Shown in pieces: positions 3,327 through 55,327 of a DNA stretch of 64,000 bases (positions are counted from its first letter, which is position 1; every line of letters starts with the position of its first letter). This stretch comes from Naegleria gruberi (lineage: Eukaryota): assembly GCA_000004985.1 (NCBI GenBank), contig GG738845.1; one strand, written 5' to 3'. A program made the position numbers and the translations under genes. The notes beneath the pieces were generated by a model. That model saw only the letters and a list, made by a program, of their open reading frames with translations. It did not search any database and was not told the origin of the DNA.

Positions 3327-3560
3327 TTACTTACGTTTTGAACACAATATCAATCCGTATTCCCAAGTATGTAAAAACAAAAAAGAAAACGGATTCCAAT
3401 AGAAATTAAAATACAATCTTTTTCTTTTTGTTATTGTTAAAGGTTCAGGCAAAATATTTGTACTGGTTTTACAAATTAACAACAAATCACATTTAAAAGA
3501 ATTAATTTGATTTTCTTGATGAGATAAAATGTGATAGGTTTGATGTGTCATTTTTTAAAT
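3327..3560 (-). repeat. Repeat family R1, copy a. Its head (atgacacgtcaaatc.. ..aaatgtgatttgtt) is at the right end.
   Basis: About 85-90% identity to copies at 3876, 5337, 11890(-), 12460 and 32960(-). Forms a head-to-head inverted pair with copy b. Confidence 0.8.
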
Positions 3561-3599
3561 CAAATATGAGAATGGATGGAAAATGTTTTTATTTACAAG

Positions 3600-3702
3600 A
3601 GGGGATGAAAAATCAGATGGGTAGTTGGATCCATCCACAAAATCAAAATCCTGTGTGATGTTGTAAATTCTGTTCGGCGGAGGGGTTATGTGGGATTCTT
3701 GT
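3600..3702 (+). repeat. Partial copy (5' two-thirds) of the GC-rich TIR element P
   Basis: ggggatgaaaaatc...ggatccatccacaaaatcaaaatcctgtgtgatgttgtaaattctgttcggcggagggg aligns with the full copy at 55180-55327. Confidence 0.6.
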
Positions 3703-3875
3703 AATTCTAAAAGGTCAACAAATTGTTGGTTAATAACATAATAAATGATAAACAAAAGAATTCCTTGTTTAAGTTTACTCCTTCGCCACCTTAATAAATT
3801 GTTGTAAGCTTTTACAATAAAATTTATGTTAACAACAAACTTTTAAAAGAAAAAGATGAAAGAATTTATTTAAAT

Positions 3876-4035
3876 CAAAAAAATGACACGTCAAATCTAT
3901 CACATTTTATTTCATCAAGAAAATCAAATTAATTCTTTTAAATGTGATTTGTTAATAATTATTAAAACCACTACAAATATTTTAATAGCAAAAAGAATAC
4001 ATTGTATCATACATAGGATGTTTATTAAGACTTGT
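3876..4035 (+). repeat. Repeat family R1, copy b. Ends with the tatcatacat(a/g)gatgtttattaagac block.
   Basis: Same family as copy a. The heads face each other across a 331-bp spacer. Confidence 0.8.
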
Positions 4036-4150
4036 CAGACAATATTGTCTTCATCATTTTCTATTAATTCTTATAATTCTTCCATAATTAAATCTTCATC
4101 TCTATTCTCTTTTCAGCTTTAATTAAAGGTTTCGTTGGTAGTAGGTTTGT

Positions 4151-4214
4151 TATTAAAATACTGTGTGGTGTTGTGGATTTTGTGTGGCAGAGGGGGATTT
4201 GGATGACAGATTTT
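4151..4214 (+). repeat. Partial copy (3' end) of the GC-rich TIR element P
   Basis: ctgtgtggtgttgtggattttgtgtggcagagggggatttggatgacagattttccatcccctc matches the 3' half of 55180-55327, including the terminal gattttccatcccctc. Confidence 0.6.
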
Positions 4215-5336
4215 CCATCCCCTCAATCTGAATCTATTGGAATTCCGTTTTGAATTTAATGTGGTGAATCATGTTGGAAACATCGAATTCTTGTTATCAA
4301 GTTGTGAAAACGAGAGAGGTGATTATCAAGAGAAATGTTGGTATTACCTTGTCAATCAACATCGCGTCCACATGAAAGACGCAACCACTATCAAGAGCAA
4401 GTAAGGATTGTAGTGGTGATTGCATCGATAAATCTTTAATAATACTTGGCTTTCCTTTGTTATCAGCTTTCTTTGTTTTTATCAAATAATAGCTGTTGGG
4501 GTCTGGTTTTCTATTAACAAAATTAACATTTTCAATTTCTTGAATAGAATTAACTTTGTTGATATCTTTGGCAAAATCATTCAAATATCGTGCCATATTT
4601 TTTAATTTCGAAACTTGTTTAATGTTTGATCTTTAAAAAAAATGGCGGTAAAAAAATGGGCGGGAAAATAATCGTGAAATAAAAAATTGTGCGTTTAGCA
4701 GGTTTGGTACCCCTTCCTACGTTAAGTCTACTCATTATTCTACAACTAAGCCACGAAACATATAATACACGATCTGTATCTATCTAGTGTAAAGTGTTAA
4801 TAATAAGTTTCAGTTTTTCCACAAATTTATCGCCACAGCCTGCAACAACCTTTACAATGTTAATCATGTATCATTTATGAGGATAATGGTTCAGTTATAT
4901 CAATCTCTATTTTGGTGTGAAAGAGTTTGGCCGGATTTGATAATATGAACATGATAAGACCCGTCCGACGACGGGTTTGAGTAAAGGAAGGGAAATAATA
5001 ATTAAACGAACTTATATTTTATTAAGTTTACAATAAAATAAAAGGTGTAGGTTTATTAATGTCTCTTGTATCAATAACGACCTGAGAGACCATAAGTTTA
5101 CAATAAAAACAAATCCATTCTTCACTTCGCTCAGAATTAGACAGAATAAAAGAATGCATTTTCGGACCAAACTTATTGACTTTCTCAACTTCCTTTGTTA
5201 AAGTTTAGTTTTGTTCAATTTCGAAACTTTCACTTCCAATTTTCCAACTTTATCTTCATCTGGATTTTCTTTCTTTTTATTCTTAGGAATTATTTTTTTT
5301 GGATAAATAAGAATAGGTAAAAATATTAAAAAAATC

Positions 5337-5660
5337 CAAAAAAATGTCATGTCAAATCTATCACATTTTGTCTCATCAAGAAAATCAAATTAATTCTTTT
5401 AAATGTGATTTGTTGTTAATTTTTAAAATCACTACAAATATTTTGCCCAAAACGTCAACAATAACAAAAAGAAAGTATTTTAATTTTCTCAAAAGAAAAA
5501 ATATAAGTTTAGGTTTTTTTATAAGAATTGCTATTATGAGAGTACTAAATAAGTATTATATTACTTCTTCGAATTTGGAGAAGAATTGGTATTGTAGTTG
5601 AAAGAAAGATCTATTATATCATACACATGCATGAGATGTTTATTAAGACCAAAAGTAACA
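5337..5660 (+). repeat. Repeat family R1, copy c
   Basis: Head atgtcatgtcaaatctatcacattttgtctcatcaagaaaatcaaattaattcttttaaatgtgatttgtt, and tail block catgcatgagatgtttattaagacc at about 5625. Confidence 0.8.
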
Positions 5661-6419
5661 GATTTGGTAAATAGAAAAATCCAAGGCTACTTTCAAAATC
5701 TAAACAAATACACTAAAAAGATCAAATGGAGAATGGATATATAATATTTTGCATCCTCTGTGTCAGTTTGGGGAGAAATTATGAGCTGGTTGAAGATAAT
5801 TTTCAAGGCAGGTACATACAATTCTTTAGCCACTTGATGAAAGGGACAAGCAAATCTTTTAATGATGATCCCATTTTTGCAAATTTTTAAAATTGTTTTT
5901 GAGAAATTTGTTAGTTGACACAAGATGTTCTTATCGAGGTTTGTGTAGTGGGTTCTAATATTATTAATACTAGTATTGAGTTAACAAGCTTAATCAAGTC
6001 ATGGTCAATTTTTCAACATTACAACAACAACAAATGGTTGAAAAATTACTTATTAACCAAGAGGTTAATAAGTACATTGCTAAAAGATTCAATAATATCA
6101 CTTCTACTAACCCAAAGATATTGTCAGAATATGAGAATATCAAGAGGGTGGTTAGATCAGCCCTTATTTTGGCTAGTAAGTTGCTAGAAGAAGGAACTTG
6201 TTGTTTATTGTGAGCGAAATATAATAGCTCTTCAACACGCTGATAATCCTGTAGTGACTGTCCAAATAGTAAGGCCCAAATCAATAAACAAGATGCATCT
6301 TTCTACTCAGACGAATCTTTTTTTCGTGAACATCTCTACATATCGTAGACATGTTAAGAGATGGAGTGAAGGTCCTTCCAATCCATCTCAAGATTTAATT
6401 CTATTCAAAGGCCAAGAAC

Positions 6420-8760
6420 TTGGCTTGTGAAAGAACTCTTCAAAGAATTGGAGCAATCGAAGAATGTACAGATCTGGTGATTATTTCAAGATACAGATTG
6501 GTTCCAAAGAGGGATTCATATCGACTGATAATTAGAGATGGATTGCCGATCATTAGGTATAATGATAGAGAAGAAAAAGAGTTATCTAAAACCAATGAAA
6601 ACGTTTCAATTATTAGGAATAATTGTAGATTTAGAAAAGAAGATATTGTCAATGAATTCGTCAACAATAATCAAGATAAAACAAAGAATTGGAATGGTTT
6701 TATCTCAATTTCATCAAGGAGAAAGAATTTTCTTTAGAGATTTATATCGTATCACTGGTATTGTTATTGCTTATCTAGATTGTTTTCAACCAGCAAGAGT
6801 AATGCTCAATCCAATTTATACATTTGCAGCAGAGAAAGTTTTCAAACACGGATGGGAAGGAAGTTGTTACCTCTCCGATCGAGTAGTTTACTGTCTCCAA
6901 TGGATTTCAGCAAATCTGAATTTTTGGAATGGAAAGGTTTTTCAATTCCCAAGTCTGGTGAATTATTTCTGGACAGACGCTTCAAAGATTGGATGGGGAG
7001 CTCATTTCAAGGAGAAGAATTTAAAAATCAATGGTCATTGGTCGGAAGAAGAAGCAAAACAATCAATCAATGTTCTAGAGTTAAGAGCTGTTTGGAAAGC
7101 TCTTCAACAATGGAGAAAAATTCTGAATGGTCAAAATTTGATAATTTACTTGGATTCTATGGTAGCTCTACACACCATAAAAAAGGGTGGTTCAAAATCC
7201 AAGACAATCTCTCGAATAGTTCAATCGATATGGAGAAAAATTTTCGAGGAGAATATTCAACTCCTTTCATTGGAATGGTTGTCTTCTCAGGAGAATTCAA
7301 TTGCAGACGCACTGAGCAGAACTCCAATAGAGACGGATCCAACAGATTGGGAAATCTTAACAAGTTCCTTCAACCGAGTACAGCAGCAATTGAATGTATC
7401 AATCGATTTGCCAGCCCGTACAATTTCAAGGTAAATCCCATTCTGTACAAGACACAGAACCAGCAGGGAAATTCCAGCAGATTCATTCTCCCGTCTTTGG
7501 ATAGAACCAGTAATCAATTGGTGTTGCGTCCCATTCAATCTAATAGGGAGAGTAATCCAACATTGCATAGAATCCAAAGCTCAAATGGTTCTAGTTCATC
7601 CAGTGTGGAAATCCCAATATTGGTGGAAAACTATAGAAACTCTGAGAGTGAAATCTGTAGAAGTTTATGGACGAGATTTCAAGTCTACAAAAAGCGGGAA
7701 GGTGGAGCCTTCGAAAAAGTCTTGGAATTTAGAAGCCAGTCTTTTGGACGCTCGCTCCAAGACTTGACAGATATTGCTTTAATGTTAATGCCTCATCATA
7801 TCAAAGATTCGACTGCGGCAACGTATGATTCATATTGGAGAAGGTTGATTGAATTTGCAATTCGTAACTTTTTCAATCCTCCACCTTCTGAAGATTTGGT
7901 TTTTTTATTTATTACTGATCTATTCATCACTTGGCCAGTGGTGGTAATTGTAAACAAGCAAAGTTTGCAATTAAGAATAGATGTAAATTATTTGGTGTAG
8001 ATGATCCCACTACATCTCAACGTATTCAATTACTCATTTCAGGGATGTGCAATGTATCATACGTTTTCTCTCCACGAATTAGAAATCCATGGAGTATTGT
8101 TTATATTCGAAAGTGGATTCAGGTTGGAAGGAATTTTGTTCCTGAAAAATCATTTATTATGTACACAACTTTAATTAAGACAAGTTGCTATTTGGCTTAA
8201 TATAGAGGGGAAGTTTTCTTCCCATTCATTAAGAATTGGTGGTGCGACCGATGCTGCTTATGCAAAGATTGGTAAAGAGGCAATCAAGGCGATTGGTGAT
8301 TGGTCTTCTGATGCAATTGATATCTTCGATCTGAATTTTCTATTGACATAAACGTATCTAAAGATTTGGGTTTTTAGTTTTTTGCTGGTAGGACTCAGTA
8401 TTTCAGAAACGACACCTTATTTTGTTGTTGATAAACCTATAAACAGGGTCAAAAGAAGCATTATTAAGACAACAAACACTTGTTTTTGAGCAATTAGAAG
8501 GAAACGAAGAAATCACAGTAGCAATGGATGGTTCATTTGAGAATAAGAGAGGTGGTATTGGAATTGTGACGAAAACTCAACAAATATCAATGAAGGCATT
8601 CGCTGCTGCATCGTCATTTGATTGTGAAATCCAAGCCATCTACATGGCCCTAAAAATGACAGCCAAGTTCCAAAGAATTAACATATTATCAGACTCACAA
8701 GCTAGTATCAAGATTATTCAAAGGAGATAAGAACTGTAAATATTCAAGCAAATCAAATCT
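6420..8760 (+). mobile_element. Degenerate DIRS-type (tyrosine-recombinase) retroelement remnant. It has an RNase H domain, then frame-shifted tyrosine-recombinase pieces, then a second RNase-H-like ORF.
   Basis: ORF 6538..7434 has an RNase H fold signature (IYLDSMVALHTIKKGGSKS...QLLSLEWLSSQENSIADALSR). The region 7585-8340 carries tyrosine-recombinase-like segments in shifted frames, including HSLRIGGATDAAYAKIG...GDWSSDAIDIF, where the expected catalytic Tyr appears as Phe. ORF 8524..8730 is DGSFENKRGGIGIV...FDCEIQAIYMALKM, which is RNase-H-like. Stops and frameshifts interrupt all of these. Confidence 0.6.
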
Positions 8761-8978
8761 CTATACAAGCAGGAGAAAAAATTAATCAAATGCCAAATCT
8801 TTGCAAAATTGCTCTTGATAAATATTCCTCTTCAATAGTGGAAAATAATCCATCAGTGAAGATTAACATATTCCCTTACTTTCCACATATTTATTAAACA
8901 AAGATTTGAATTAAAATGAAACATTCTTTAAAAATGTCCAAATATAAATCTTCTGCTATCAATGATCAGAACCTTGTG

Positions 8979-10793
8979 CTATTGTAAAATAAAATAATCC
9001 GGAAGTGGATCTAAATTTCTGTTTAAAAATCCAAAATCTATTAATTCTTTGTCAAGACTAAAAAATTGTGGTGCATGGGTGGAAATATTAATTTCAAACA
9101 CATCTATTGTAAATTTAACGCGCTTAGAATCTAATTTCTCAAAATCACAGTTTGTAACATCTTGGAAGTCGATATTATTGCGGCGGCATATGTGTATTTC
9201 TTTTAAAGTTGGGCTATTAACTAAATATCGGGCTGCGTTTAATGATAAATTATTCTGCAAATATAAAATTTTCAAATTTGGCAATCGAGTCCTTCTAGAA
9301 AATATTTCCATACATTCTGAATCATGTGTTAGTATTCTTAATCTTTCTAAATTAATCAAATTTGAAAAAGCAATTATATGAATATTTGATGAATTAATGT
9401 TTAAAAAAAAGCCACATTCAAAGTAAATTAAATTTAGTAAATCACCATTACATAAGTAATATAATGCAGAATTGTTAATAGGAGAACAAATTGCTAAATG
9501 TGTTAATTGGCTCATTTGCGCAATAATTTTAATATTTTCTGTTGATAAACATGAATCAAAACCATTTCCTAAACATAATCCTCTTAATGAATTTAGCTCC
9601 AACATACTGCTCATGTCAATGTTTAATGTTGATGCAAATAAATGTAGATATTTAATATTTTTAAAATTGTTCACAAAATTATTAAAATTATAATTATTTC
9701 TAAAATATTTAGTGTTTGTATGCAAATATAAACATTCTAATGCTGGCATTGAAATATTTTCTAAATTGCACGTACCATGCCATTTTGCAGCACTAAAATA
9801 ATTATTAATAACCAAATGTTTCAATAAAGGTAAGCATGTAATATTGTGTATGCTTGATTCATCAGGTATTTGTAGTGATGTTAAATTAGAAAAATTAATA
9901 GTAGGCGGTAATGGAAAGTAAAAAAAATTAGGTCCAATATTTAGTAATTCGAATTGATGAGAATACTTAATAATTTCATTGTAAATTTGGTTTAAATGTT
10001 TAAAAACAGTAGTACCAATATAGATTGAGAATTTTGTTAACAATGGAAATTTTGAAAAATCAAAAGTAGAATCAATAGTTTCCATACTGTTACCACATAT
10101 CGATAATTCTTTTAAATTAGAATAAGGGATATCAATATTGAACAAGTAAGAAAATGCTTTTTTAAAATCCCAACTAACGTGAAACATAAATGTATCTAAT
10201 TTAGTATGAACGTAATTACACAATAATTTGTATGATTTCTTTGAATTAATTCCACTAAAACGCATGCTTGAAAGTGCCAATTGTTTTAATTTTGGTAGTT
10301 TAAACATATTTTCTATGTCATTAGAGCTTAATGTGAAGTTTTTAATATGTAATTTTGTGATATTTGAATGTTGTAGTATATTATCAGAAATAGAACTAAA
10401 TTTAATTCTATAAACACCACTATTTTCCACTCCACTTATTACTAATTGTACTAATTTTTTAGATGTTAACATTATTTCGAGAGTGTCTTTGAAATCAGTT
10501 ATATTATGTAATGTTATTCTTGCAAATAATTGCAAAAAATTGTGTTTTTCCCCCAAGCCGCAACGAATTTGTTTTGTTTTCTTATCAAAATATCTATTCA
10601 TAAAATCCCTTTTGTATGGTAATGAAAAAGCTGCTTGTCTCCATTCCGAACACACATGAGTGGCGCATATTAAACTGTTTGTGTTTAAATAGGAAAATAT
10701 TTCTAATAATAAATCGTATGGAATGTTGCAAGGAACAGTATCGTTTCTTTCCTTTTTTTTTTTACGTAAAGGAAAGAGGAAAGCGTGTAGCAT
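8979..10793 (-). CDS. F-box / leucine-rich-repeat protein, 604-aa single exon
   Basis: N-terminal F-box-like motif IPYDLLLEIFSYLNTNSLICATHVCSEWR, followed by many irregular leucine-rich repeats (L..L.L..N). Confidence 0.55.
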   Translation of the reverse strand: MLHAFLFPLRKKKKERNDTVPCNIPYDLLLEIFSYLNTNSLICATHVCSEWRQAAFSLPYKRDFMNRYFDKKTKQIRCGLGEKHNFLQLFARITLHNITDFKDTLEIMLTSKKLVQLVISGVENSGVYRIKFSSISDNILQHSNITKLHIKNFTLSSNDIENMFKLPKLKQLALSSMRFSGINSKKSYKLLCNYVHTKLDTFMFHVSWDFKKAFSYLFNIDIPYSNLKELSICGNSMETIDSTFDFSKFPLLTKFSIYIGTTVFKHLNQIYNEIIKYSHQFELLNIGPNFFYFPLPPTINFSNLTSLQIPDESSIHNITCLPLLKHLVINNYFSAAKWHGTCNLENISMPALECLYLHTNTKYFRNNYNFNNFVNNFKNIKYLHLFASTLNIDMSSMLELNSLRGLCLGNGFDSCLSTENIKIIAQMSQLTHLAICSPINNSALYYLCNGDLLNLIYFECGFFLNINSSNIHIIAFSNLINLERLRILTHDSECMEIFSRRTRLPNLKILYLQNNLSLNAARYLVNSPTLKEIHICRRNNIDFQDVTNCDFEKLDSKRVKFTIDVFEINISTHAPQFFSLDKELIDFGFLNRNLDPLPDYFILQ

Positions 10794-10819
10794 TTTTTTT
10801 GTTGTTATGTTTTATTGAT

Positions 10820-10966
10820 ACAGCTCATCAGATCCTCTCAAAAATAAACAATCACAATCTAGAATGTCAACAATTAAAGAGTGGAATGTGAAACGATTTC
10901 TAATAATTTAAAAATCCACTCCTTCTAAAAGCATCACAAAAAATCATGACAGTCTTTTTGTTTGGA
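10820..10966 (+). repeat. Repeat R2, copy 1 (about 150 bp)
   Basis: About 90% identical to 14304-14454 in the same orientation (acagc..tcatcagatcctctcaaaa...gaatgtcaacaattaaagagtggaatgtgaaacgatttctaataatttaaaa..tccactc.ttctaa.agcatcacaaaaaatcatg.cagt.tttttgtttg). Confidence 0.75.
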
Positions 10967-11889
10967 TCTAACACATTAAAAGATTTACTTGCCACTTTCA
11001 CACCACAAGTGGCTAAAGAATTCCCACCACCCCACCCTAACACAGAATAATTTCAATAGAAATTTCAGATCTAGTAAGTCAATAATTTTTTAATAATTTA
11101 TTATTTTATTGGATTTCATTTGATTATATCCAATTTGGTGACAGATAATTTGGTCAAATGACATTTTCATTTGGATAGCCAATTATCTAAAGCAATAGCT
11201 TTTGTAGTATTGCTTGGTGGTGGATATCAAGTGGGTATCACTATCAGGAACAAGACAGGATCATTTGTTGACCTGGTTCCTTAATCAAATATGTGAAAAT
11301 TCTAACAATTTTTTATATGATTTGTGTGTTTATTTAATTTTTTAAATTTAAAGCACTGCTATGCAGAGAATTAGTTAGCAAGTTTTCAGATATTTCAATA
11401 TTTCAGATTTGTTTTTATGGTTTTTTAAGGTTTTTTGAATTTATTAGATGGTTTAATGGGCGCATAGTTGCAACTATTAGAGGTATTAGAGTTTAAAAAT
11501 TATACAAAAGTTGATTAATGATATCCTCAATCATTATTTATTATTATTATTCTTGCGAATTAATTTACACGCGTGTAATAGAATAAACTTAGTATTTCAA
11601 AAACGACACCTTTATGATAAACCTATAACAGTATGCTCTAAAAAAAACCACAATGAAAAAGAATAAACTGACTTTTAATTTCAGGAGATCAGAATGGCAT
11701 TAAGGAGGGAATTGTATTTTACAATACTATTACAACAGAAACCAAAAGTTTTACAAATCAATCTGACATTACAATATTTGGAAAAAAGAGGATTTCATGA
11801 ATCAATTTTCAAAATCATTACCATCAAAAGAACATAAGTTTCTGATTGTACAATTTTAAAATTAATCCCTTTAAAAAAAGTTTGAAATG

Positions 11890-12075
11890 GAGAATTAAAA
11901 TAAACACAAAAGAAAGCAAATTCAAATAGAAATTAAAATACTTTCTCTTTCTTTTTGCAACCATTGAGGGCAAAATTTTTAGAGGTTTTAATAATTAATA
12001 ACAAATCACATTTAAAAGAATTAATTTGATTTTCTTGATGAGATAAAATGTGATAGATTTGATGTTTCATTTTTT
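11890..12075 (-). repeat. Repeat family R1, copy d
   Basis: Head at the right end. Forms a head-to-head pair with copy e. Confidence 0.8.
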
Positions 12076-12459
12076 TTACAAACTCTATTACCAATAAAAC
12101 CAAATATCTAAAAAAGATAATTTCTTAAAAGAGTTGTTGGTTTGATATTTTGTTTTTTGTAGAAAAACCAATCTCGTAAATATGAATGTTCATTAAGTCA
12201 AAATCAGAAACCTAAATCCTTTAAGACATGTCTATGAAGATATCTATTAATTGAATCAGAAGACCAATGGTTAAATTTACCTTTATCTTTGCATAAAATT
12301 ACATCTTGAGTTAATAAATTATCATTGTAATATTATGGTCAATTTTCACCAATCCATAGCCTTGGTAGATTGGTTTGGCCATAACTATTATATTAATAAC
12401 TTTCACTAAATACACTTTATTAAGGTGGAGAAAGAGTGACAAATTTTAAATATTTTGCT

Positions 12460-12850
12460 TTAAAAAAATGACACGTCAAATCCATCACATTTTATCTCAT
12501 CAAGAAAATCAAATTAATTCTTTTAAATGTGATTTGTTATTAATTATTAAACCCACTATTTTAATAACAAAAAGAAAAAGAAAATATTTTAATTTCAAAA
12601 TGAATCCGTTTTCTTTGCAATTTATTTTAGCATCCTCCATTGAGAGAATGGAAATATTACTTCTTCGAATTTGCAGAAGATATTGGTATAATATTAAAAC
12701 CAGACTGGAAAGGGTTTTTAATGGCGGGTTTTAAACATCTGCAATAATATACAAATGTTTAACTATATTTTCATTGAGAACCTTTTCACCTTTACGGCAA
12801 ACCAATACGACAGGTAAATCATATATTGTATCATACATGAGATGTTTATT
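12460..12850 (+). repeat. Repeat family R1, copy e
   Basis: Head atgacacgtcaaatccatcacattttatctcatcaag..., and tail block atcatacatgagatgtttattaagaccatg at about 12825. Confidence 0.8.
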
Positions 12851-14303
12851 AAGACCATGTAAAATTATTGCCTCTTATTGCCAAAATCGACAACAATAAA
12901 CAAACGAAAAGAGATTTCATTTTTTAAGTTGTTCTCTTGATTTGGCTCTTAATTACACTTTCCACATAATTGGTAGTATTTATAAAAGACATACTACTTG
13001 TTCGGCCTGTATTTGTTAATAAATGTCAATGCTTATTCCATTGCTCATGGAAGTATTTGCAAAAAGCACCTTCTTTGTCTGTGTTTTCCAAAGCCTCTAA
13101 AGTAAATGGAAACTGAAAACCCTTTTTCTTGAAACTCGTTTAATAATGAGTCACAAATATCCACACCTATATTGTAAATAGCTTTCTTGAAGATTGATTC
13201 TGTGATATCAACGATATCTTTAACACCTTCCAGTTTACCTCTGTGGTGATGTGTTTCCAATAGCAACCACCTGACCTTTACATAAATAAAAATAAACATT
13301 TTAAACCAAGTCGAAGAATACCAAGTTATAAATTGTTGAAATGGAATAATCTATTACAGATTTTGTATTTTGTGTTTGGTTATTACTTTGTACCTCTTTT
13401 GTTATATATTTTCACCTTCTTCCTGCGTTGTATGTTTTTTTGTATTACCTGTTTAGGTTAGGTTAATTCTAAAGCTCTATTCATATTCAGATTTTTCTTT
13501 TGGTTTGACTTATCCTTCAAATTGTGTTAGAGTTGTTTTATTTTTGCTACAAATAGAGTTAGTTTTGTAGCAAAGGTTAGGCCAAAAAGAAAGCTCTTGA
13601 TAAGGAAAGCTCTGTTGTTGAAGTTATACTGAATGTCCAAATGTGGAAAAATATGTGTTAAATTAGTGGGATGGATTTTGGATATTAATATACTCTGTAA
13701 ATCTCACTCATTTTGAATCCGAGTTGAATTAAAGTTGATATATTCTAAATCAATAACACTTTCCCAAAGGAAAAAACATAGTAATAAAATATTGAATTTT
13801 ATTTTATTTCATTATTTGCTCAATTTTATTCTATTTCAAAAAAAAGAATCCAAATACAGTGTTTTTCGTGTTTTGCATGTTTTTTCATGTTTTTTCAAAA
13901 ACGACTCTCACTGTCCCAACTTTTTGGATATTGGTGAATAAATAATCGGCAAAAAGCCAAAAGAAGAAAAAAGTTTATTTTTTAATTTTCTTATAAATAT
14001 TCGTAAAGTGATTTAAATGTATTCTTTGTTGATAATTACTCAAAACACAACACATTTCCAAATAATATTATCCAATCCAAGATTATGATTAACGAGGCAT
14101 CATTAAAAATCATTAACAAGAAATTAATGGCTCTACGTTAAGACCTAAGTTAAGCTGACGTTAACAGAAACAATTTATGAAAAGAAAAAAAAATTCAACA
14201 TAGTGAATGAACCGCCACCATTAATGGTGAATAGACTAATGTTACAGGAAATTAAGGAACCTCATCTTAATTCAATTTGATATTGTAACTTTCCTTTTCT
14301 TAG

Positions 14304-14454
14304 ACAGCGTCTTCATCAGATCCTCTCAAAATTAAACTATCACTTTCTGGAATGTCAACAATTAAAGAGTGGAATGTGAAACGATTTCTAATAATTTAAA
14401 ATTCCACTCTTTCTAACAGCATCACAAAAAATCATGGCAGTTTTTTTGTTTGAA
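14304..14454 (+). repeat. Repeat R2, copy 2
   Basis: See 10820-10966. Confidence 0.75.
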
Positions 14455-25934: not shown

Positions 25935-26520
25935 TTTTTTCATAATATTTCTGAAACACTGCTTTCCATTGAGTGATGCAGGTGTGATACTCCTTATAAT
26001 TGTGTTGCGTAGTGGCTAGATTGTGGTCAGTTTGTTAATTGGTTCACTCAAATATTATGAGTAGAAACGAATCAAAACAATGAAAAGAACTTTCGTACAA
26101 TTCTTAATAATCAAAAATCCCAATTAAATTTAATGATGCTGAGCTGCCCCTGCGAAAAATTCGCTTCATACAAACCCATGAACATTTAAGGTTGAAAGCT
26201 CGGTCAAGATTCTTTACCACCAAAACAGAATCTCAACCAAATCGATTTGCATTTTTATTTTTAATTTTATTTTTAAATATTCATTCTTCCTTCCGACCTA
26301 CTAGTTGGAACATGGCTAAAACCAATTAGACCATGTTGCCTAATAACTCTAAATTATCGTATTCATCATCGCCTTCAATGAACATCGTCATCAGACGCTG
26401 CGTCTTTTTGTTAGTTGTGTGTTCTTGTTGCTTCCACAAGGAAATGTGATAACAACGATAAGATTCATTGAAAAAGCCCAAAAAGCAACAGACATAACAG
26501 AAACACACAATTAAAAAAAA

Positions 26521-29500
26521 ATGGCAGATGATGCACATATCGAATTGATAGATGCGACTGCCCCAGCCGCAAATACTGGAGCCTCCAGCTCAAACAATAA
26601 TACAACAACGAATAATACATTTGCAGAGGCTGTAAGAAAATCCTTGGATTATATTCAACATGCTACTACAAATAGGCCAAGTACTGACAGGAAAGCACCA
26701 TCTACAGAAGTAGGTGCCATCTTTGAAGAAGTCCGTCAAAGTATTGACTTGGTCAGAAGTATGCAAGAACAGGAACAAAAAACTGGTAAGAAGGGAAAGA
26801 AGAACAAGGTTTTGGAGAAGGCCAAGAAAAAGGCTATTGATATTACCGAACACGAGATGCCAGTAGAGAAATTGTTGGACTTATATGGCTCTAATTTTGC
26901 TTCTGACCCGGAAGCTTCCCAAGGTTTGAGTGAAAAGGTTGCTCAAGAACGTTTAGCTGTCAATGGTCCTAACAAATTGAAACCACCTAAGAAGAAGCCA
27001 TTTATTTTCAAGGTTATTGAACAATTTACAAGTTTATTCTCTTTGTTGATGATTTTTGCCGGATTCTTATGTATTTTGGATCCTATTATTGAACAAAGTG
27101 TAGACTCAATTCCTAATGTCTTTTTGGGTGTCATTTTGTGGGCTGTCGTCGTTTTGAATGCCGCCATTTCATTGGTACAAGAAAGAGGAAGTGAAAAAGT
27201 ATTGGAAGGTTTTATGTCTATGCAAAAGAGTTCAGTTTTAGTTGTAAGAGATGGTGTTTTAAGAAAAGTTGATGCGGATACACTCGTTTTGGGTGATATT
27301 GTTAAAATTGAAGCTGGTGACATTGTTCCAGCCGATTTGAGACTTTTACATACAAGTGGTTTGAAGGTAGATAACAGTTCTTTGACTGGTGAAGCTGATC
27401 CTCAAAGCAGAACATCCGAATCTAGTTCTTCAAATCCATTGGAAACAGCCAACTTGGCTTTCTTTGGTACAACTGTTCTTGACGGAAGTGGATACGGAAT
27501 TGTAATTAGATGTGGTAACGTTACAGTCATTGGTCAAATTGCTCTCCTTGCTGGTACTGCTCCTACTTTGAAGACTCCATTGAGAAGAGAAATTGATAAC
27601 TTTGTTAGAAGTATTGGTATTATTGCCTTGACCAGTTCTGTTATCTTGTTTTGTATTGCTTTGGGTCTCGGACTCAGTTGGTATCAAGCTTTCCTTTTTG
27701 CTATTGGTGTAGTTACTGCAAATATTCCAGAAGGTTTAATTGCCGTCGTTACTGTTTGCTTGACTGTTTCTGCTAAGAGATTGATGGCTGTTAATGTCCT
27801 TGTTAAAAAATTAGAACACGTCGAAACTTTGGGTAGTACATCTGTAATTTGCTCAGATAAGACAGGTACTTTAACTCAAAACAGAATGACTGTTGTTGAA
27901 ACTTGGATTGACGGTAATGTTAATGCTATTGCTTATGAAAGAATGATGAAAGCAAAACCAGAAAAGCCTGCAAGTGAACTCCCAGATATGAGTCAAATTT
28001 CTGAAGAAGCTTTGACAGGTTATCAAACTCTTATCAGAGCATGTGCATTGTGCAGTGCTACTACCTTTGTTCAATCTGAAACCAATCTTGCCAAGCCAAT
28101 TCTTGACAGAGAATGTATTGGTGATGCTTCTGAAACAGCCCTTATTAAGTTTGTTGAAACTAGAAATGATACAGCTACTCTTCTAGGTATTAGAGGAGCA
28201 CACACCAGTCTCTACACTATTCCATTCAATTCCAAGAATAAGTGGATGTTGGAAGTTCGTGAAAAACCAGGTTTGGATAAGGCTATTCTTTTTATGAAGG
28301 GTGCCCCAGAAAGAATTATCAGTAGATGTACATCAATCTTAATTGGTGGTAAGGTCTTCCCATTGGATGAAATGTGGAAGAATAACTTCCAACAAGCTTA
28401 TGACTTCTTTGCTATGAAAGGTGAACGTGTCTTGGGTTTTGCTCAATTGATGATTGATAAGGAATGTGTAAAGAAACAATTAGAAGCAGAAGAATCAGGT
28501 GGTACATCTGACGGTTTGTTGATTCCGACTGAAGGTTTGACATTTGTTGGCATGTGTGCTTTGACTGATCCTCCAAAGGTTGGTGTTCCAGAAGCTATTG
28601 CTAAATGTAAACATGCTGGTATTCAAGTTGTCATGGTTACAGGTGATCACCCTGCTACTGCTAAGGCTATTGCTAAACAAGTTGGTATTCTTAATGACGA
28701 CTGTATGACTAGAGAAGATCTTGCCATGGATGAAGGATGTTCCGCAGAATCCATTCCATTTAGTAGACCAGAAGTTGATGCTGTTGTTTTGCATGGTGAA
28801 GAAATTGACAAACTCTCTTCTAAGGAATGGAGAGCAATTTTGAAGAAGAAACAAATTGTATTTTCCAGAACTTCTCCTCAACAAAAATTGTTAATTGTCA
28901 GCAAATTCCAAGAAATGGGTCACTGTGTTGCTGTTACTGGTGATGGTACTAACGACTCTCCTGCTTTGAGAAAGGCTGATATTGGTGTTGCTATGAATAT
29001 TTCTGGTTCTGCTGTTTCTAAGGATGCAGCTGCTATTATTTTGATGGATGATAACTTTGCTTCAATTGTTAACGGTGTTGAAGAAGGTAGATTGATTTTC
29101 GATAACTTGAAGAAGTCTATTGCTTATACTTTGACTCACGCCATTCCAGAAGTTAGTAGTTTCTTGGTTTATGCTATTTTTGGTATTCCACTCCCATTGA
29201 CTGGTGTTCAAGTCTTGATGATTGACTTGGGTACTGAATTGATGAATGCTATTTCTCTTGCTTATGAACCTGCTGAAAGTGATATTATGTCTGTTCCTCC
29301 AAGAAGTAAGACAGAGAGACTTGTCGGTTTCCAACTTTTCTCTTATTCATATCTCCAAGTTGGTGTAATTGAGGCTCTTGGTTGTTATTGTTGTTATTTC
29401 CTTGCTCTTGCTTTCTATGGTGTTCCACCATCATATTGTTGGAATGCTTCTAGATCAAACTACTTTACAGCCACTGCTCCAGACTTGCACATTATTGAAA

Positions 29501-29862
29501 CAGGTCTCAAGATTTCTGCTAAACATCAAGTAGATATTTTGTGTACTGCTCAAACAGCTTATTTCCTTTGTATTGTCATTTGCCAATGGGCTACCTTAAT
29601 GTCAACAAGAACAAGAAGAACATCTGTATTCTTTAAGGGATTCTCTGCAAACTTGTGGATTTATGCAGGTGTTGTTTTTGCTGTACTTTTGACTTGTTTC
29701 TTCTTATACGTTCCTTTCATTTCAGATTTCATTTTCCAAATTAGACCTGTCAGTATTGACTTTTGGTTGTGGCCAGTTCCTTGGGCTTTTGGTGTTTTGT
29801 TCTATGACGAACTTAGAAAATTATTATTGAGAAAGTTGAAGATTTCTGCCATTGCCTGGTAA
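26521..29862 (+). CDS. P-type cation-transporting ATPase, type IIC (Na+/K+- or H+/K+-ATPase alpha-subunit-like), 1113-aa single exon
   Basis: Phosphorylation motif ICSDKTGTLTQNRMTV, hinge VAVTGDGTNDSPALRKADIGVAMNISGS and a TGES-region equivalent. The N-terminal Lys-rich tail and 10-TM architecture are typical of Na,K-ATPase alpha. Confidence 0.9.
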   Translation: MADDAHIELIDATAPAANTGASSSNNNTTTNNTFAEAVRKSLDYIQHATTNRPSTDRKAPSTEVGAIFEEVRQSIDLVRSMQEQEQKTGKKGKKNKVLEKAKKKAIDITEHEMPVEKLLDLYGSNFASDPEASQGLSEKVAQERLAVNGPNKLKPPKKKPFIFKVIEQFTSLFSLLMIFAGFLCILDPIIEQSVDSIPNVFLGVILWAVVVLNAAISLVQERGSEKVLEGFMSMQKSSVLVVRDGVLRKVDADTLVLGDIVKIEAGDIVPADLRLLHTSGLKVDNSSLTGEADPQSRTSESSSSNPLETANLAFFGTTVLDGSGYGIVIRCGNVTVIGQIALLAGTAPTLKTPLRREIDNFVRSIGIIALTSSVILFCIALGLGLSWYQAFLFAIGVVTANIPEGLIAVVTVCLTVSAKRLMAVNVLVKKLEHVETLGSTSVICSDKTGTLTQNRMTVVETWIDGNVNAIAYERMMKAKPEKPASELPDMSQISEEALTGYQTLIRACALCSATTFVQSETNLAKPILDRECIGDASETALIKFVETRNDTATLLGIRGAHTSLYTIPFNSKNKWMLEVREKPGLDKAILFMKGAPERIISRCTSILIGGKVFPLDEMWKNNFQQAYDFFAMKGERVLGFAQLMIDKECVKKQLEAEESGGTSDGLLIPTEGLTFVGMCALTDPPKVGVPEAIAKCKHAGIQVVMVTGDHPATAKAIAKQVGILNDDCMTREDLAMDEGCSAESIPFSRPEVDAVVLHGEEIDKLSSKEWRAILKKKQIVFSRTSPQQKLLIVSKFQEMGHCVAVTGDGTNDSPALRKADIGVAMNISGSAVSKDAAAIILMDDNFASIVNGVEEGRLIFDNLKKSIAYTLTHAIPEVSSFLVYAIFGIPLPLTGVQVLMIDLGTELMNAISLAYEPAESDIMSVPPRSKTERLVGFQLFSYSYLQVGVIEALGCYCCYFLALAFYGVPPSYCWNASRSNYFTATAPDLHIIETGLKISAKHQVDILCTAQTAYFLCIVICQWATLMSTRTRRTSVFFKGFSANLWIYAGVVFAVLLTCFFLYVPFISDFIFQIRPVSIDFWLWPVPWAFGVLFYDELRKLLLRKLKISAIAW

Positions 29863-30065
29863 ACTAAAATAAAACCTAAATTATTCTAAAATCAGATTAA
29901 TCTGAATATCTAGCTTTCCAAGTTTCTGATTTAACAGAATAGACGAACATTGAGAGATACACAACTACCTATTGTAGACGGGTTTTTCCTTACAACCGTA
30001 AATTAATTTCGCCTCTATTGTCTGTTGAGACTCTTTCCATAACCTCAGTCTCAAAAGAAACCAAA

Positions 30066-30920
30066 ATGCAATTTTCAAAAGTTTCAAAAAAAATACAATT
30101 AAACATAATGATGCAACAACAGTCAACAACAACATCACAAGAGACCATAACAACACCAACAACTTCCGATGCATTGTCACGAGATGAAATCGAATATAAA
30201 CAGAAGGAAAAACAGCAACAATTCGATGAAGAAAAATCATTGACATCTCCGACATCTTTTACTACCACTACTTCTCAACAACAACAACAGAAGCAAACTT
30301 TGGACAATAAACAACAAGAAATTAATGAAAGTAATAAGACATTGAATAGTAAAGAATTATCTGGTCCTAATAAATCAAATAAATCGGAGAGTTTGGAGCA
30401 TCCCATGTCTATCAAGGAATTTCTCAAGATTACAATTCTTCCTCGATGGTATTCAGTGCCCAACAAGGTGAGTGAAGCAAGAGATATGTTGGCAACAGTA
30501 AGTTTCACTCAGATGATGGAATTTTTAACTTTATAATAACAGGAAAGAACCATGTTGAGTTGGTATAGAACTGCATTTTCAATTTTGGGTGTTGGAATTG
30601 CTGTTTCGAGGAGTAAGTTTCTATATATAAGAGTGTTTATATTGATTTATTGATATATGATAGTGAAAAAATCTGATGGTTCTGTAATTCCAAAGGTTGT
30701 TGGAGCAATTTCATGTTCACTAGCTATGATTTTAATCATGTATGCTCATTTGAGATATTATGCAGTTATGAAATCTCTATTCGAATGTAAGTTGAAAGAG
30801 TTTTGTGTCTATATTAACTCGACAATAGATCACTTTTCTGCTGATACATTATCTCCTCCTTTCATTCTCCTTATTGGCTTGCTAATTTGTGTCATTGCTG
30901 TTCTTTTATTCTTTGTGTAA
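30066..30920 (+). CDS. DUF202 (YidH/VTC-type) membrane-domain protein, paralogue A. Exons approximately 30066..30497, 30543..30612 and 30664..30920, with a possible extra 51-nt intron at about 30787-30837.
   Basis: Conserved PRWYSVPNKVSEARDMLA | ERTMLSWYRTAFSILGVGIAVS (the ERTxL[AS]WxRT DUF202 motif) spans a 45-nt intron. C-terminal TM helices follow. An S/T/Q-rich N-terminal region precedes the domain. Confidence 0.55.
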
Positions 30921-31027
30921 ATAACCCCCTAAACTTAATTTTGATATAATAAATTAATTTATTTAAACTCGAATTTCAGTATTATATTTACATTCTAATC
31001 AATTGGTTGTTGCTCATTTAAATTCAT

Positions 31028-32090
31028 TCAATTAACAAAGACAAGTGCCAAAGCAAGAATACACACAACCATTCCAAATAAAAACATGAAAGGAGGTGCA
31101 AATAAATCGGCCACATACATGCCACCAATCAATCGTCTTGTTGCGTATTGGAATCGAATGAAAGAGTAAATGAAAATCAATAAACCCAAAATTACAAAAA
31201 TTGTTCCAATAGAAACCATTAGAATTTTAACTTCTGCAGTATCAGACGAAGATGTTAACACTAAAAAATCAGTACATGCATTCTCTTGAAAACTTACATT
31301 TGGAAACTGCAATACCAATTGCCACAATTGACAATGCAGTTCTAACCCAAGCTAATTGAGTTCTCTCCACAGCCAACAAATCTCTTGCTTCTGATTGTTT
31401 GTTTGGATGAAAGGTCCACCTAGGAATGAAACCCATTAAATAATCAAGAGAATATCTCTTATTGGATGATTGTCCTGTTATTGTAGATTCATCTTTATGA
31501 TGTTGTTCCTTTTCCTCAGCTGAGGGTGACATTATAACGTCCTTCTTCTTATCAACATTAATATCTTTTAATTCAATTTCCATTAGCAAATCATCATCGG
31601 ATTTTACCTCATCCGAAAGGTTATTACCACTTGTATGCATCATGACAGATCCTCCACATTGTAATTCTTCTTCTTGTGTTTCATCTAGTAATTGCAAGGA
31701 TGCACCAGCGAGCTTTGATTTTGAAAAATTCATTCCTGATGATGGTGGTGGTAGTGAGGAGAAAGGTTGTAATTTTTTGTTTTCTTCTTGATTGATAATT
31801 GTCGTTATTGTATTGTCCATTTGTGTTTCATCCGATTTGGGAGTGGTTATGGTAATATCGATTATTGGCAATGATGATAATGAAGTATTGGATGCATGTT
31901 CTTCTGTTGATGATGGTAGTGATTGAGCGGCATTTTGCTTTGAATCTTCATCTTGTTGATGATGATTTATATTTGATAAGGAAGAGCTTAATTGCTCACT
32001 CCTCTCCACACTTCCTCCAAAACTCACAGACCTCTGCAAAATGGTATCAAGTCGGGGTGATGTTGTTATTGTTATTGTCGTTTGCGACAT
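31028..32090 (-). CDS. DUF202 (YidH/VTC-type) membrane-domain protein, paralogue B. Exons 32090..31298 and 31260..31028.
   Basis: IPRWTFHPNKQSEARDLLAVERTQLAWVRTALSIVAIGIAVSK, then a 37-nt GTAAGT..TTTTAG intron, then TM helices (…GMYVADLFAPPFMFLFGMVVCILALALVFVN) that are collinear with paralogue A. Confidence 0.55.
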
Positions 32091-32959
32091 TTTTTCATCA
32101 AAAGTTACTGACTTCTGTGATTCTCAATAACAATTTCCCTTATTTTCTTCTGGCCATTATTATTGCGCCATTTTATTTGTCGGCTAAATTCAGAGCCTAA
32201 AATTTCATAATTCATATGAAATTTTGTTATGAAAACTCTAGAATAAATAAACAAGATGTTTGCTGAATGTTATTGAGGACTTTTTATATGAATTTTGTTG
32301 TTTTGGTTGTGTGTGACTAATTCATGCTCCTTAAAACCTTTTCAAAATATTAGATTGTTCTCTTGTATCTTCTTTGAAATCTCGATAACTAGATTAGGTT
32401 GTATTTTTTTTAAAATTTTACTGAAAAACCATTATTTCAAATTCATTTTTCAATACAAGACCTTATTAAAATCTGTCGAAGTTGAATTAGTAATTTCTTG
32501 TTGTGCTTGTTTAATTTTTTAAACTTAATATTCAATTTCTTTGTTGTGTTTGTTTAATTTTTTGTTTATTTATTTAGTTATGTTTGTTTATTTTTTTGTG
32601 GATGTTAAATTGTTTGTTGATTTTTTATGTTTTTAATTACAATAGAAAGTTGTAAAATGTAGTTTCAAATTTAAAAATTCATTTACATTATCTGATTTTA
32701 AATTCTTCTCTTCAAATCTATCAAGAGGGCGGTTAGATCAGTCTTATTTTGGCTAGAAAGATGAAGAGGTGAAAGAATTTGTTGTTTATTGTGAGCGTAA
32801 GATGATAACTTTTCAACATACTAATAATTCTTTTGTGAAGATTTTACATCTTCAATCTTCTCCTCTAATAATTGAAAATATGCCACTAATTGAAGCAGCA
32901 TACAAAATGGTAAACTTAGAATCAAATTTCGTAAACACGGATAAATGAAAATGATTAAG

Positions 32960-33160
32960 GCAACTACAAAATTATCAATAAAATATTCACTCTAGAAAGC
33001 GGATTCAAAGAGAAATTAAAATGCTGTCTCTTTTTATATGTCGTTGTTAGGGGCGAAATATTTGTAGTGGTTTTAATAATAAATAACAAATCATATTTAA
33101 AAGAATTAATTTGATTTTCTTGATGAAATAAAATGTGATAGGTTTGATGTTCCATTTTTT
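32960..33160 (-). repeat. Repeat family R1, copy f
   Basis: aacaaatcatatttaaaagaattaatttgattttcttgatgaaataaaatgtgataggtttgatgttccat matches the R1 head. Confidence 0.8.
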
Positions 33161-33648
33161 TTAGATTCTTTTTATTCAAAAACTAAACCTCTAAAGTAAT
33201 ATATCCCAACCCCTTTTTGGATATTGGTGAATAAATTTATTGTAATTGAGTTGATAAGCTAATAAATATTCGTAAAGTGATTTGACTGGGATAGATATTG
33301 GATATTAATATACTCTTTGAGAATGCAGATAGTGGTATTTCTTGGATATTGGAATTGGTTGTCATTTAGTTTGGTACTGAAAGACATTTTCATCACACTC
33401 TTTGAGAATTGGTGAATAAAGTTTCTTCCTTTACAACGAAACTCTTAAGTACAATAAACATGGGTTTTCCAATTTAAAATCAATCAACATTATCAAGAGG
33501 TAACAAATAATGAAATCTTGTATTTAACGGTTCTAACATTTTCCCTTAAAGTATCCAAAATAGACCCCAATGCCTTCTTCTTTCATTGTTAAAATTTCAG
33601 TTTCCATTTGTCCATTTCATTTTCCCACTAATTTTGTTACAATAAAAA

Positions 33649-43135: not shown

Positions 43136-43336
43136 TTTTTTTTAATGTGTGATGACACCTGACAGTCCATGTAGGGACCAACATCCAAAAGATAATAAAT
43201 TTTTTATTGAATTGGGCATTTTGAATTTATTATTTTATGTAATTTTAATGAAATATTTCAATTCTCCTTAAATATTTGCAAATATTTTCAATAAACTATT
43301 TAACTGTTTACAAAAATATTATTAAATATTAAATAT

Positions 43337-43564
43337 TCATCCTCTCAATTTAAATAAAAAGTGAAGAGTTGAATCTTTTTGAATATTGTAATCCAGTAGC
43401 GTTTTATCATTCTCCATTTCTTTACCAGCAAATATTAAACGTTGTTCACTGATGGGAACTCCATCTTTATTGAATATTTGATTCTTTACCGATTCAATTG
43501 TATCATTCGATTCGACATCGAGTGATAGAACTCTATTGTTTAGAGTTTTGACGGTTATTTGCAT
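43337..43564 (-). CDS. Ubiquitin-like protein (75 aa)
   Basis: [75 protein letters not shown] is collinear with ubiquitin (MQIFVKTL…[34 protein letters not shown]). It ends with a single Gly. Confidence 0.6.
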
Positions 43565-53854: not shown

Positions 53855-54025
53855 ATTCAAAAAGAAAATGCAAAAACATTCATTGGTCAACACTTTTGAT
53901 AAATTATTATTCAAGTTTAATGGTTGTTTTATATTGGATTGTCAGGAAATTCTTTTAATTCATAATAACAGTACAAAATTATTGTCCTACCAAAATACTA
54001 CAACAAGTAACAATTATCAAATCCG
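53855..54025 (+). repeat. About 170-bp segment duplicated at 55010-55180. Both copies are overlapped by artefactual MQKHSLVNTFDKL… ORFs.
   Basis: About 85% identity. In copy 2 the sequence diverges exactly where the GC-rich element P begins. Confidence 0.7.
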
Positions 54026-55009
54026 AAAGAAAGTAGTTATTGATTTTCCAAATAACAAACACTCAATTAATAGAAGACAAAATGAAAGAAATAATTTTCC
54101 AACAAATAACTGTAACACTTTATCATCAAGTAACCTGTTGCTTCTGAGTATTCAAAGATATCAGAGAATAGGAAATGATGAACGATTGAAAATAATTATT
54201 CAACATACATATACTAAGATGAATGATTGTGGTGTATGTTATTATCGAAAAAGAAACCAAGTTCATCAATTAATGATTCATGTAATTGAATTATTGTATT
54301 TGGTTTTAAAATTACAACCCAATACCAACCTCTACAAACATTATTGTTCATTGATAATGCTAAATCCATTCTCGCTTCAAAAGTCAAATTTGAATAGTCA
54401 TTAATATAATAGCTTCGATGTTTCATTCTGATTTTTTCAAATTCTATTTTATTACTGATAATACAGGATCACAATACACAAGTTTACCTAATTTTTGTAA
54501 ATGGAAAGGTAAAAAATTAAGAAAATAGTTTTTTGTGTTCATGTTTTTCATAAATTAATAATTACTTTTCAACGTTTCAGTTTTCTTTTTATTTTTACTT
54601 TAGTTTTTTCGAATGTCTTTTCCAGTTTAGATGAAGATTTATTTTGTACAAATTGGGAACTCTTATTGTAAAAAGAAACTCAATTCTATGTTTCGTGTTT
54701 AGATTAAGACTGAGTTATTATGTTCAAATGTGGAACTAAAAAACACAACAATCCTGCATAGGTATGAAATTACTTTCTTCTGGAGAAGAAATAAAAGTTC
54801 CAGGATTGTAAAGAGGATAAAAGATTATTCGTATATTCTTATTGAATTATATTGTTGCTCAGTAATATACAATAATCTTAGATAATCCACTTCTTTCATC
54901 AAAATCCATATGGATTCAAAATATTCAAAACATGCAACCACAACCAGTTTCCATCGATTTATATATTCCCAATATCATTGACTTTCATTTAAAAAAAAGC
55001 AAGTTTGGG

Positions 55010-55180
55010 ATTGAAAAAGAAAATGCAAAAACATTCATTGGTTAACACTTTTGATAAATTATTCAAGTTTAACTTGAATATTTTTATATTGGATTGTCAG
55101 GAAATTCCATTAATTCATAATAATAATACAACATTATTTTCTTACAATAATATTACAAAAACAAACAATTATCAAATCCG
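55010..55180 (+). repeat. Second copy of the 53855-54025 segment
   Basis: See above. Confidence 0.7.
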
Positions 55181-55327
55181 AGGGGATGGAAAATCCTCGA
55201 TCCAAATCCCACGCTTTGCAGATGGATTGTTGGATCCATCCGCAAAGCCAAAATATCGTGTGATGTTGTGGATCCTGTTTGGCGGAGGAGCCGCGTGGGA
55301 TTTGGATGGCGGATTTTCCATCCCCTC
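55180..55327 (+). repeat. GC-rich 148-bp element P with perfect 17-bp terminal inverted repeats (gaggggatggaaaatcc … ggattttccatcccctc). It may be a MITE-like element or a structured RNA.
   Basis: The TIR is read directly from the sequence. The element is about 50% GC against an AT-rich background. Partial copies lie at 3600-3702 and 4151-4214. Confidence 0.6.

Follow-up and report, generated by a model that had tools for sequence, protein, structure and literature searches.

Introduction

Retrotransposons of the PAT, Ngaro and kangaroo types, which encode a tyrosine recombinase (YR), have split direct repeats as their boundaries (Poulter and Goodwin, 2005, as summarised in PMC3266345). In these elements, a direct repeat is present at both ends and a B-A junction lies near the 3′ end. 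DIRS-1 of Dictyostelium and DIRS1-like elements, which tend to form nested, rearranged clusters, carry inverted terminal repeats together with internal complementary regions. DIRS-type repeats have been reported in both Naegleria gruberi and Naegleria lovaniensis (PMC3266345; PMC6125883, Table 3).

This report focuses on a repeat family, R1, found in a 64-kb stretch of heterolobosean DNA (hereafter the window, i.e., the whole stretch that was analysed). The window has a G+C content of about 30% and contains F-box, kinase, MACPF and P-type ATPase genes. The product of its ATPase gene is 61–63% identical to proteins of N. lovaniensis, N. gruberi and Willaertia, and the gene matches N. fowleri FDP41_003312 with 88% protein and 86.6% DNA identity. 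An RT gene located beside the N. fowleri ATPase orthologue is unrelated to the retroelement described below. The R1 copies are most likely the ~205-bp end repeats of decayed YR retrotransposons in a Naegleria-like amoeba, that is, an ordinary mobile-element remnant with an odd pairing.

The R1 repeat family

Comparison of the window with itself recovered all six of the R1 copies announced by the preliminary description, four of them arranged in two head-to-head pairs (A/B and D/E) and two solo (C and F):

Copy A, ~3350–3556, minus strand: short form, core only; head (A-run and ATG) at 3556.
Copy B, 3877–4031, plus strand: long form with an internal deletion; tail block 4005–4031 at its end.
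Copy C, 5338–5650, plus strand: long form; ATG at 5344; forms the 5′ edge of a decayed retroelement.
Copy D, ~11870–12076, minus strand: short form; follows a YR stop codon of the same strand at a distance of 127 nt.
Copy E, 12462–12857, plus strand: long form; module 2 (12655–12700) in common with C; tail block 12829–12855 at its end.
Copy F, ~32957–33161, minus strand: short form, solo.

All six copies share a common core of ~205 nt with pairwise identities of 78–95%, the initial ~105 nt being 91–95% identical between copies. The 24-nt pattern of the head is matched five times with at most three mismatches, against 0.00 matches expected from shuffles. The head edge is abrupt, as mean ungapped pairwise identity falls from ~0.8 to a background of 0.28–0.4 within 10 nt upstream of the A6–8 run. 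The tail block TATCATACATGAGATGTTTATTAAGAC, initially described as recurrent, is present in all of the plus-strand copies (B, C and E) but is absent from A, D and F. Together with a second conserved island common to C and E, it forms module 2, whose similarity was reached by none of 300 shuffles for the B–E and C–E comparisons and by 1 of 300 for B–C. Homology between B, C and E ends abruptly at the tail block. Beyond the core, A, D and F have no significant sequence in common, a candidate “module 2-prime” being not significant, and on their outer side short and long arms end in unrelated sequence.

The internal palindrome of 10 bp that had been pointed out in the head exists as a 9–10-bp palindrome in five of the six copies and is broken in F, but it is not energetically unusual; indeed, the R1 core shows no more folding stability than its shuffled versions (z +0.2 to −1.9). 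Neither metagenome nor prokaryote contigs contained the 31-nt invariant part of the core, exact look-ups with three proteins of the window had no match, and a weak R1-like 40-mer in one metagenome contig (L006) looks like a chance match.

A decayed DIRS-order retroelement next to copy C

Copy C is directly followed by the remains of a retroelement, whose parts are as follows:

5651–8505, plus strand: body of the decayed DIRS-order retroelement.
6339–6560, plus strand: pol N-terminus; the RT core is deleted.
~6950–7330, plus strand: RNase H, with Pfam RNase_H and RT_RNaseH domains in ORF 6538–7431.
7400–7760, plus strand: linker domain.
7760–8349, plus strand: YR, FSSHSLRIGGAT..GDWSSDAIDIF*, ending at 8349.
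8350–8499, plus strand: 3′ non-coding “B-like” stretch.

An exhaustive HMMER search with ORF 6538–7431 returned 5777 relatives, the best being P0125 (59% identity, from metagenome contigs) and P0126 (41%). The latter, the only named relative, is a 1236-aa protein of N. lovaniensis with RVT_1 and Phage_integrase domains. It is collinear with 6339–8374, with 63% identity across the YR C-terminus and 41% in the RT-thumb/RNase H region, and this collinearity places the predicted ORF start near 5286, within ~60 nt of the ATG of copy C (5344). Positions 8227–8330 encode the YR motifs HSLRIGG and GDWSSDAID. The YR of the element matches Pfam Phage_integrase only weakly (E = 0.24) because it is decayed, and its identification relies on P0126. 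The element at 5651–8505 belongs to the DIRS order of tyrosine-recombinase retrotransposons, which is defined by RT and RNase H followed by a YR on one element and by the lack of a DDE integrase. A Dam-type methyltransferase domain was detected neither in P0126 nor in the 5651–8505 element. Searches of metagenomes with the back-translated pol sequence confirmed no relatives, and a retropepsin assignment for ORFs 2414–2722 and 4297–4596 found no support in Pfam.

Four small fragments homologous to this family lie outside the element body (10974–11022, 11586–11694, 32719–32838 and 33358–33413), three of them within 500 nt of an R1 copy:

11586–11694, plus strand: second post-YR “B-like” stretch, homologous to 8392–8499 (0/300 shuffles); ~200–300 nt from the tail of D.
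32719–32838, plus strand: element-body fragment, homologous to 6138–6257 with 81% identity; 120 nt from the tail of F.
33358–33413, plus strand: YR box-II remnant TFSSHSLRIGE* (1/300 shuffles); ~200–250 nt beyond the head of F.

The remnant at 33358–33413 is the best match of the N. lovaniensis YR in the window outside the 5651–8505 element. It shares nine identical residues with the YR of that element, with five third-position differences, and has a local duplicate at ~33215–33240. The YR remnants found beside R1 copies are 65–72% identical and differ at synonymous sites, whereas the R1 copies are 85–95% identical. A greater conservation of R1 than of the adjacent YR remnants is expected of a cis-acting end that is kept across subfamilies diverging while still active.

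Split direct repeats in the N. lovaniensis relative

The relatives of this element in N. lovaniensis could be compared at four loci (L005, L008, L009 and L010):

C9374_002847, C9374_004722, C9374_010711 and C9374_014736, on contigs PYSW02000016, 21, 45 and 95: YR retrotransposon of N. lovaniensis, annotated only as hypothetical proteins.

The same 4786-nt element, with the structure A1(187)-ORF-B1(44)-A2(187)-X(497)-B2(44), occupies all four loci. Its repeats are all direct, which constitutes a split-direct-repeat structure, and the ATG of the ORF is located inside the A repeat, at position 112. The copies are 99–100% identical, which suggests recent activity. At L010, what looks like a 497-nt 5′ fragment of the element is an assembly-gap duplication rather than biology.

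The N. lovaniensis element and the 5651–8505 element have the same polyprotein order (gag-like, RT, RNase H, linker and YR). R1 resembles the A repeat in size (~205 vs. 187 nt), in its A-rich ATG, with AAAAAAATG at the R1 head, and in position, since C is at the 5′ edge of its element and D, in sense orientation, soon follows a YR stop codon. The N. lovaniensis element has a short non-coding B stretch after its YR stop codon and before its 3′ repeat. R1 and the A repeat share no nucleotide similarity, which is unremarkable at 41% protein identity. Whereas the N. lovaniensis copies are intact and strictly direct, those of the window are decayed, half of them inverted, and paired around YR remnants.

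R1 as the probable end repeat of YR retrotransposons

From these likenesses and from the retroelement remnants beside R1 we infer, with moderate confidence, that R1 corresponds to the A repeat and terminates a family of DIRS-order YR retrotransposons with split direct repeats. On the model of the N. lovaniensis element, an intact copy would read A1(R1)-gag-RT-RNase H-YR-B1-A2(R1)-X-B2, with the first ATG of the polyprotein carried by the ~205-nt repeat; the ATG in the R1 head is probably the start codon of the element itself. R1 would presumably also hold the cis signals with which reverse transcription and YR recombination regenerate both ends via a circular or tandem B·A junction. Copy C may be an A1 still joined to its 3.2-kb decayed body, and D an A2 in its native 3′ position after the YR stop codon. 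B and E would be A1-type copies that retain the first 110–190 nt of internal sequence (module 2), and A and F core-only copies.

C and D, the copies in native position at the 5′ and 3′ ends, respectively, are both in the sense orientation of the element. This direct arrangement is assembled from two different partial copies, the window holding no intact element with two R1 repeats. YR-encoding elements of the PAT, Ngaro and kangaroo types share the DIRS order with the window element, as well as the lack of target-site duplications. Integration by a YR produces no target-site duplications, and none would be left by the integration proposed here, so that R1 copies devoid of such duplications fit this mode of integration. 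Direct reading of the sequence revealed no LTR-style TG..CA ends with target-site duplications, and likewise none for every pairing of a left with a right copy.

Two features of the known split-repeat elements, the identity of A1 with A2 and of B1 with B2 within a single copy, were not seen in the window: no single copy yielded a B1/B2 pair, and the similarity of the tail block to the sequence just upstream of the R1 heads (p ~0.08) and to the post-YR gaps is not significant. Two further observations run against the proposed structure. First, the abrupt end of homology at the tail block of B, C and E suits a true element terminus better than the 5′ region of gag. Second, the position of the inverted copies A, E and F upstream of YR box-II remnants is not predicted by a simple split-repeat model.

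Head-to-head pairs and their spacers

The two facing pairs are located as first reported, but their spacers, given then as 331 and 392 bp, are 320 and 385 nt long when measured from A-run to A-run:

3557–3876, plus strand: A/B spacer, with sequence related to the MITE R2 at ~3568–3720 and block M at 3777–3841.
12077–12461, minus strand: D/E spacer, the 3′ end of a YR gene, reading RLWIGEN..GKFNHWSSDSINRYLHRHVLKDLGF*, with its stop codon at 12204–12206.

The short inverted motif said to be shared by the spacers, ccaccttaataaa, is present, but only as part of a larger 71-nt block (block M) that aligns 3777–3841 (+) with 12437–12367 (−) at 69% identity, a score reached by none of 300 shuffles. 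This homology appears only when one of the spacers is reverse-complemented. A second collinear block between the A/B and D/E spacers is not significant (score reached by 74 of 500 shuffles). On its minus strand, the D/E spacer is homologous to positions 8298–8381 of the retroelement (0/300 shuffles), and its YR stop codon stands 127 nt before the head of D. A YR box-II remnant lies downstream of A, E and F, these three R1 copies being in inverted orientation, and each inverted R1 pair encloses the terminal part of a YR gene.

Relative to the spacer, the long arm is downstream in A/B (+) and upstream in E/D (−). Such a switch, which is read from block M as the single marker of spacer orientation, is what one inversion between inverted arms would produce, and on their sequence the two pairs look like inversion isomers. 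If R1 is an end repeat of the split-direct type, each pair would bracket the last 170–385 bp of an older element copy, i.e., the YR C-terminus and the 3′ spacer. The pairs might then have arisen in two steps: first, the insertion or juxtaposition of oppositely oriented R1 copies within older ones; second, recombination of the inverted repeats with each other.

Other readings of the R1 pairs

Among the other readings, an unlikely one is that each arm–YR 3′ remnant–arm unit is a non-autonomous, foldback-like “mini-DIRS” of 0.7–1 kb mobilised in trans, with selection acting on the arms while the spacer drifts or flips. The equal layout of the two pairs, whose spacers are homologous over 71 nt, speaks for such units, as does the contrast between arms that are 91–95% identical and spacers that do not exceed 69%. 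The position of the long arm, downstream of the spacer in one pair and upstream in the other, is as expected for inversion isomers, and F and C resemble half units made of an R1 arm and a YR box-II remnant, the remnant of C being weak and not significant. However, complete units number only two, they have neither target-site duplications nor common outer termini, the outer ends of their short and long arms differ, and the orientation of the spacers hangs on one 71-nt block, the second block being matched by 74 of 500 shuffles. Furthermore, the four N. lovaniensis loci contain no such derivative.

An extension of this idea, in which the inverted R1 pairs would be functional foldback units whose arms serve as YR substrates, so that the enclosed segment flips like FLP/FRT and the two pairs are captured in opposite isomers, seems improbable.

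A further reading, which we also regard as having little probability, takes R1 for a DIRS-1-type inverted terminal repeat with the head outermost, each pair combining the right and left ends of neighbouring elements inserted into older copies. The association of R1 with a DIRS-order element, which the preliminary description had suspected, is borne out, since C abuts RT, RNase H and YR sequences and YR fragments accompany D/E and F; the architecture of DIRS-1 is not. In favour of this reading, DIRS-1 is known to insert into other copies of itself. The sharp boundary of the R1 head and the lack of target-site duplications agree with this reading, and the coding fragments could represent left ends (near C, downstream and in sense) and right ends (near D and F, where an inverted copy follows). 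The R1 core also falls within the 66–316 bp reported for the inverted terminal repeats of DIRS1-like elements (PMC3266345), with which the window element shares its RT/RNase H/YR enzymology, a terminal repeat of comparable length and nested, rearranged clusters. Nevertheless, no internal complement of the R1 terminus occurs anywhere in the window: when the first 43 nt of R1 were used in a fuzzy search and the post-YR gaps were aligned locally with the arms, no significant internal complementary region emerged near any YR 3′ end, although decay could hide one. No element with a gag-pol-YR interior bounded by an inverted R1 pair was found in the window either, as the pairs enclose only 320–385 nt; the head-to-head pairs do not represent both termini of a single DIRS-1-like element. 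D lies directly downstream of a YR stop codon in sense rather than inverted orientation, the native copies in general are direct, and a YR gene would need to have received double insertions twice, independently and at matching positions. Finally, the host is a heterolobosean, and the closest relative that could be analysed has split direct repeats instead of inverted terminal ones. Membership of R1 in the Dictyostelium DIRS-1, thug or Tdd elements is implausible, and these are not the relevant comparison because the host genes match those of Naegleria best.

The likeness of the R1 pairs to foldback elements and MITEs, another suggestion of the preliminary description, lies in their inverted arrangement, conserved arms and variable middle. 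Yet the arms are unequal and do not form an inverted repeat at their outer ends, the middle is the recognisable end of a YR gene, and no candidate pairing of ends is flanked by a target-site duplication; given, in addition, the unrelated outer termini of short and long arms, this assignment fails. A genuine MITE of the window, R2 (55180–55327), is unlike R1 in having a perfect 16-nt terminal inverted repeat within 148 nt and a folding z of −10.

The last reading separates R1 from the retroelement and places it by chance in a transposon graveyard, as a short interspersed element in its own right, a gene for a structured RNA or the first exon of a small family of host genes. It is very improbable. 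In its favour, the boundaries are sharp on both sides and an ATG in a good A-rich context opens ORFs of 45–88 aa. However, a profile of the six R1 ORFs found no homologue in 5.8 billion protein clusters, most substitutions are non-synonymous and indels shift the frame, which rules out R1 as coding sequence; the absence of any Rfam match, of tRNA genes and of excess folding rules out a structured RNA; and R1 accompanies YR fragments too consistently for chance. The test for a link with tRNA genes suggested by the preliminary description is negative, as ARAGORN identifies no tRNA gene in the 64 kb and Rfam none at gathering score. As for the R1 ORFs, which had been dismissed as repeat artefacts, they are indeed not host genes, but “pure artefact” is too strong a term if the head ATG is, as is probable, the start codon of the element.

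Implications for Naegleria retroelements

If R1 is the end repeat of a decayed YR retrotransposon family, the present analysis yields a working annotation of a region rich in repeats, in a heterolobosean genome that is poorly sampled, and removes six spurious small ORFs from it. R1 would then be a further end repeat within an already known type of YR retrotransposon, and no matching public sequence was found in the protein clusters, metagenome contigs and prokaryote contigs that were searched. The genus Naegleria carries YR retrotransposons with split direct repeats and a start codon inside the repeat. The recurrent inverted pairing of R1 around YR 3′ ends is the sole part of these observations that could surprise a specialist. 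Should the inverted pairs be mobile or invertible, they would make it possible to study, in a simple natural setting, how a DIRS-order recombinase acts on its own end repeats; otherwise, they would represent ordinary transposon debris.

Related retroelements in Naegleria lovaniensis and in metagenomes

A YR (tyrosine recombinase) retrotransposon related to the decayed DIRS-order element of the window is found in N. lovaniensis as four near-identical copies of 4.8 kb (99-100% identity), all of which display a clean A1-ORF-B1-A2-X-B2 structure, i.e., a split direct-repeat layout, and are annotated as hypothetical proteins only.

N. lovaniensis YR retrotransposon copies
L005, 9889-14674
L008, 6637-11418
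L009, 5891-10670
L010, 9891-14644

This retrotransposon has apparently been active recently. Its X region contains tandem repeats rich in GGATGCCT. An apparent additional 5′ retroelement fragment in L010 (contig PYSW02000095.1) was rejected as an assembly artefact, because the N run at 8939-8948 of this locus is flanked by an exact duplication of 766 nt.

The closest relatives of the pol of the window, with 59% identity, are three ENA metagenome contigs (L003, L004 and L007), in each of which an ORF of 520-570 aa lies directly upstream of pol. This ORF encodes a protein-kinase domain and is not gag-like; it could be a host gene located beside 5′-truncated copies, or the element could have an unusual ORF1 of this kind.

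Protein-kinase-domain ORFs upstream of the metagenome pol (same strand as pol)
L003, 65-1708
L004, 3-1574
L007, 238-1842

In the window itself, a stand-alone RNase H domain ORF (8524-8730, + strand; Pfam RNase_H, E = 7e-9) begins right at the end of the post-YR homology of the decayed element; it could be a piece of another retroelement, or else an additional 3′ ORF of the decayed element.

R2 and other repeated sequences of the window

R2, a second repeat unrelated to the six-copy repeat R1, is a MITE-like palindromic sequence of 148 nt bounded by perfect terminal inverted repeats of 16 nt (GAGGGGATGGAAAATC). Its predicted folding (-53.6 kcal/mol, z = -10) is far better than that of shuffled sequence.

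R2 and its partial copies in the window
55180-55327, R2
About 3568-3720, partial copy within the spacer between R1 copies A and B
About 4150-4224, partial copy just past the tail of R1 copy B

R2 directly follows the second copy of a tandem duplication (53855-54026 and 55010-55181, spacing 1155 nt, 86-96% identity), in which two small ORFs begin. Between an F-box gene and a kinase gene, direct repeats of about 155 nt (10810-10964 and 14295-14452, 89% identity) flank a gene-poor block of 3.3 kb that holds the head-to-head R1 pair D/E, and could delimit an insertion or a recombination-mediated duplication. Self-comparison also revealed two weak palindromic regions, 43201-43360 and 30542-31368, the latter spanning convergent ORFs (31272-32123, - strand, and 30375-30620) with 44% protein identity. 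An isolated G+C-rich hairpin (4948-4975, GACCCGTCCGACGACGGGTTTG) lies in A+T-rich, non-coding surroundings between R1 copies B and C.

A P-type ATPase gene shared with Naegleria fowleri

The P-type ATPase gene at 26515-29868 is 86.6% identical at the DNA level to positions 9995-13329 of N. fowleri VFQX01000033.1. This similarity ends exactly at the ends of the gene, which has different neighbours in the two sequences. At the protein level, its best matches in N. lovaniensis, N. gruberi and Willaertia reach no more than 61-63% identity. Patchy retention of a paralogue could explain this pattern, as could gene transfer.
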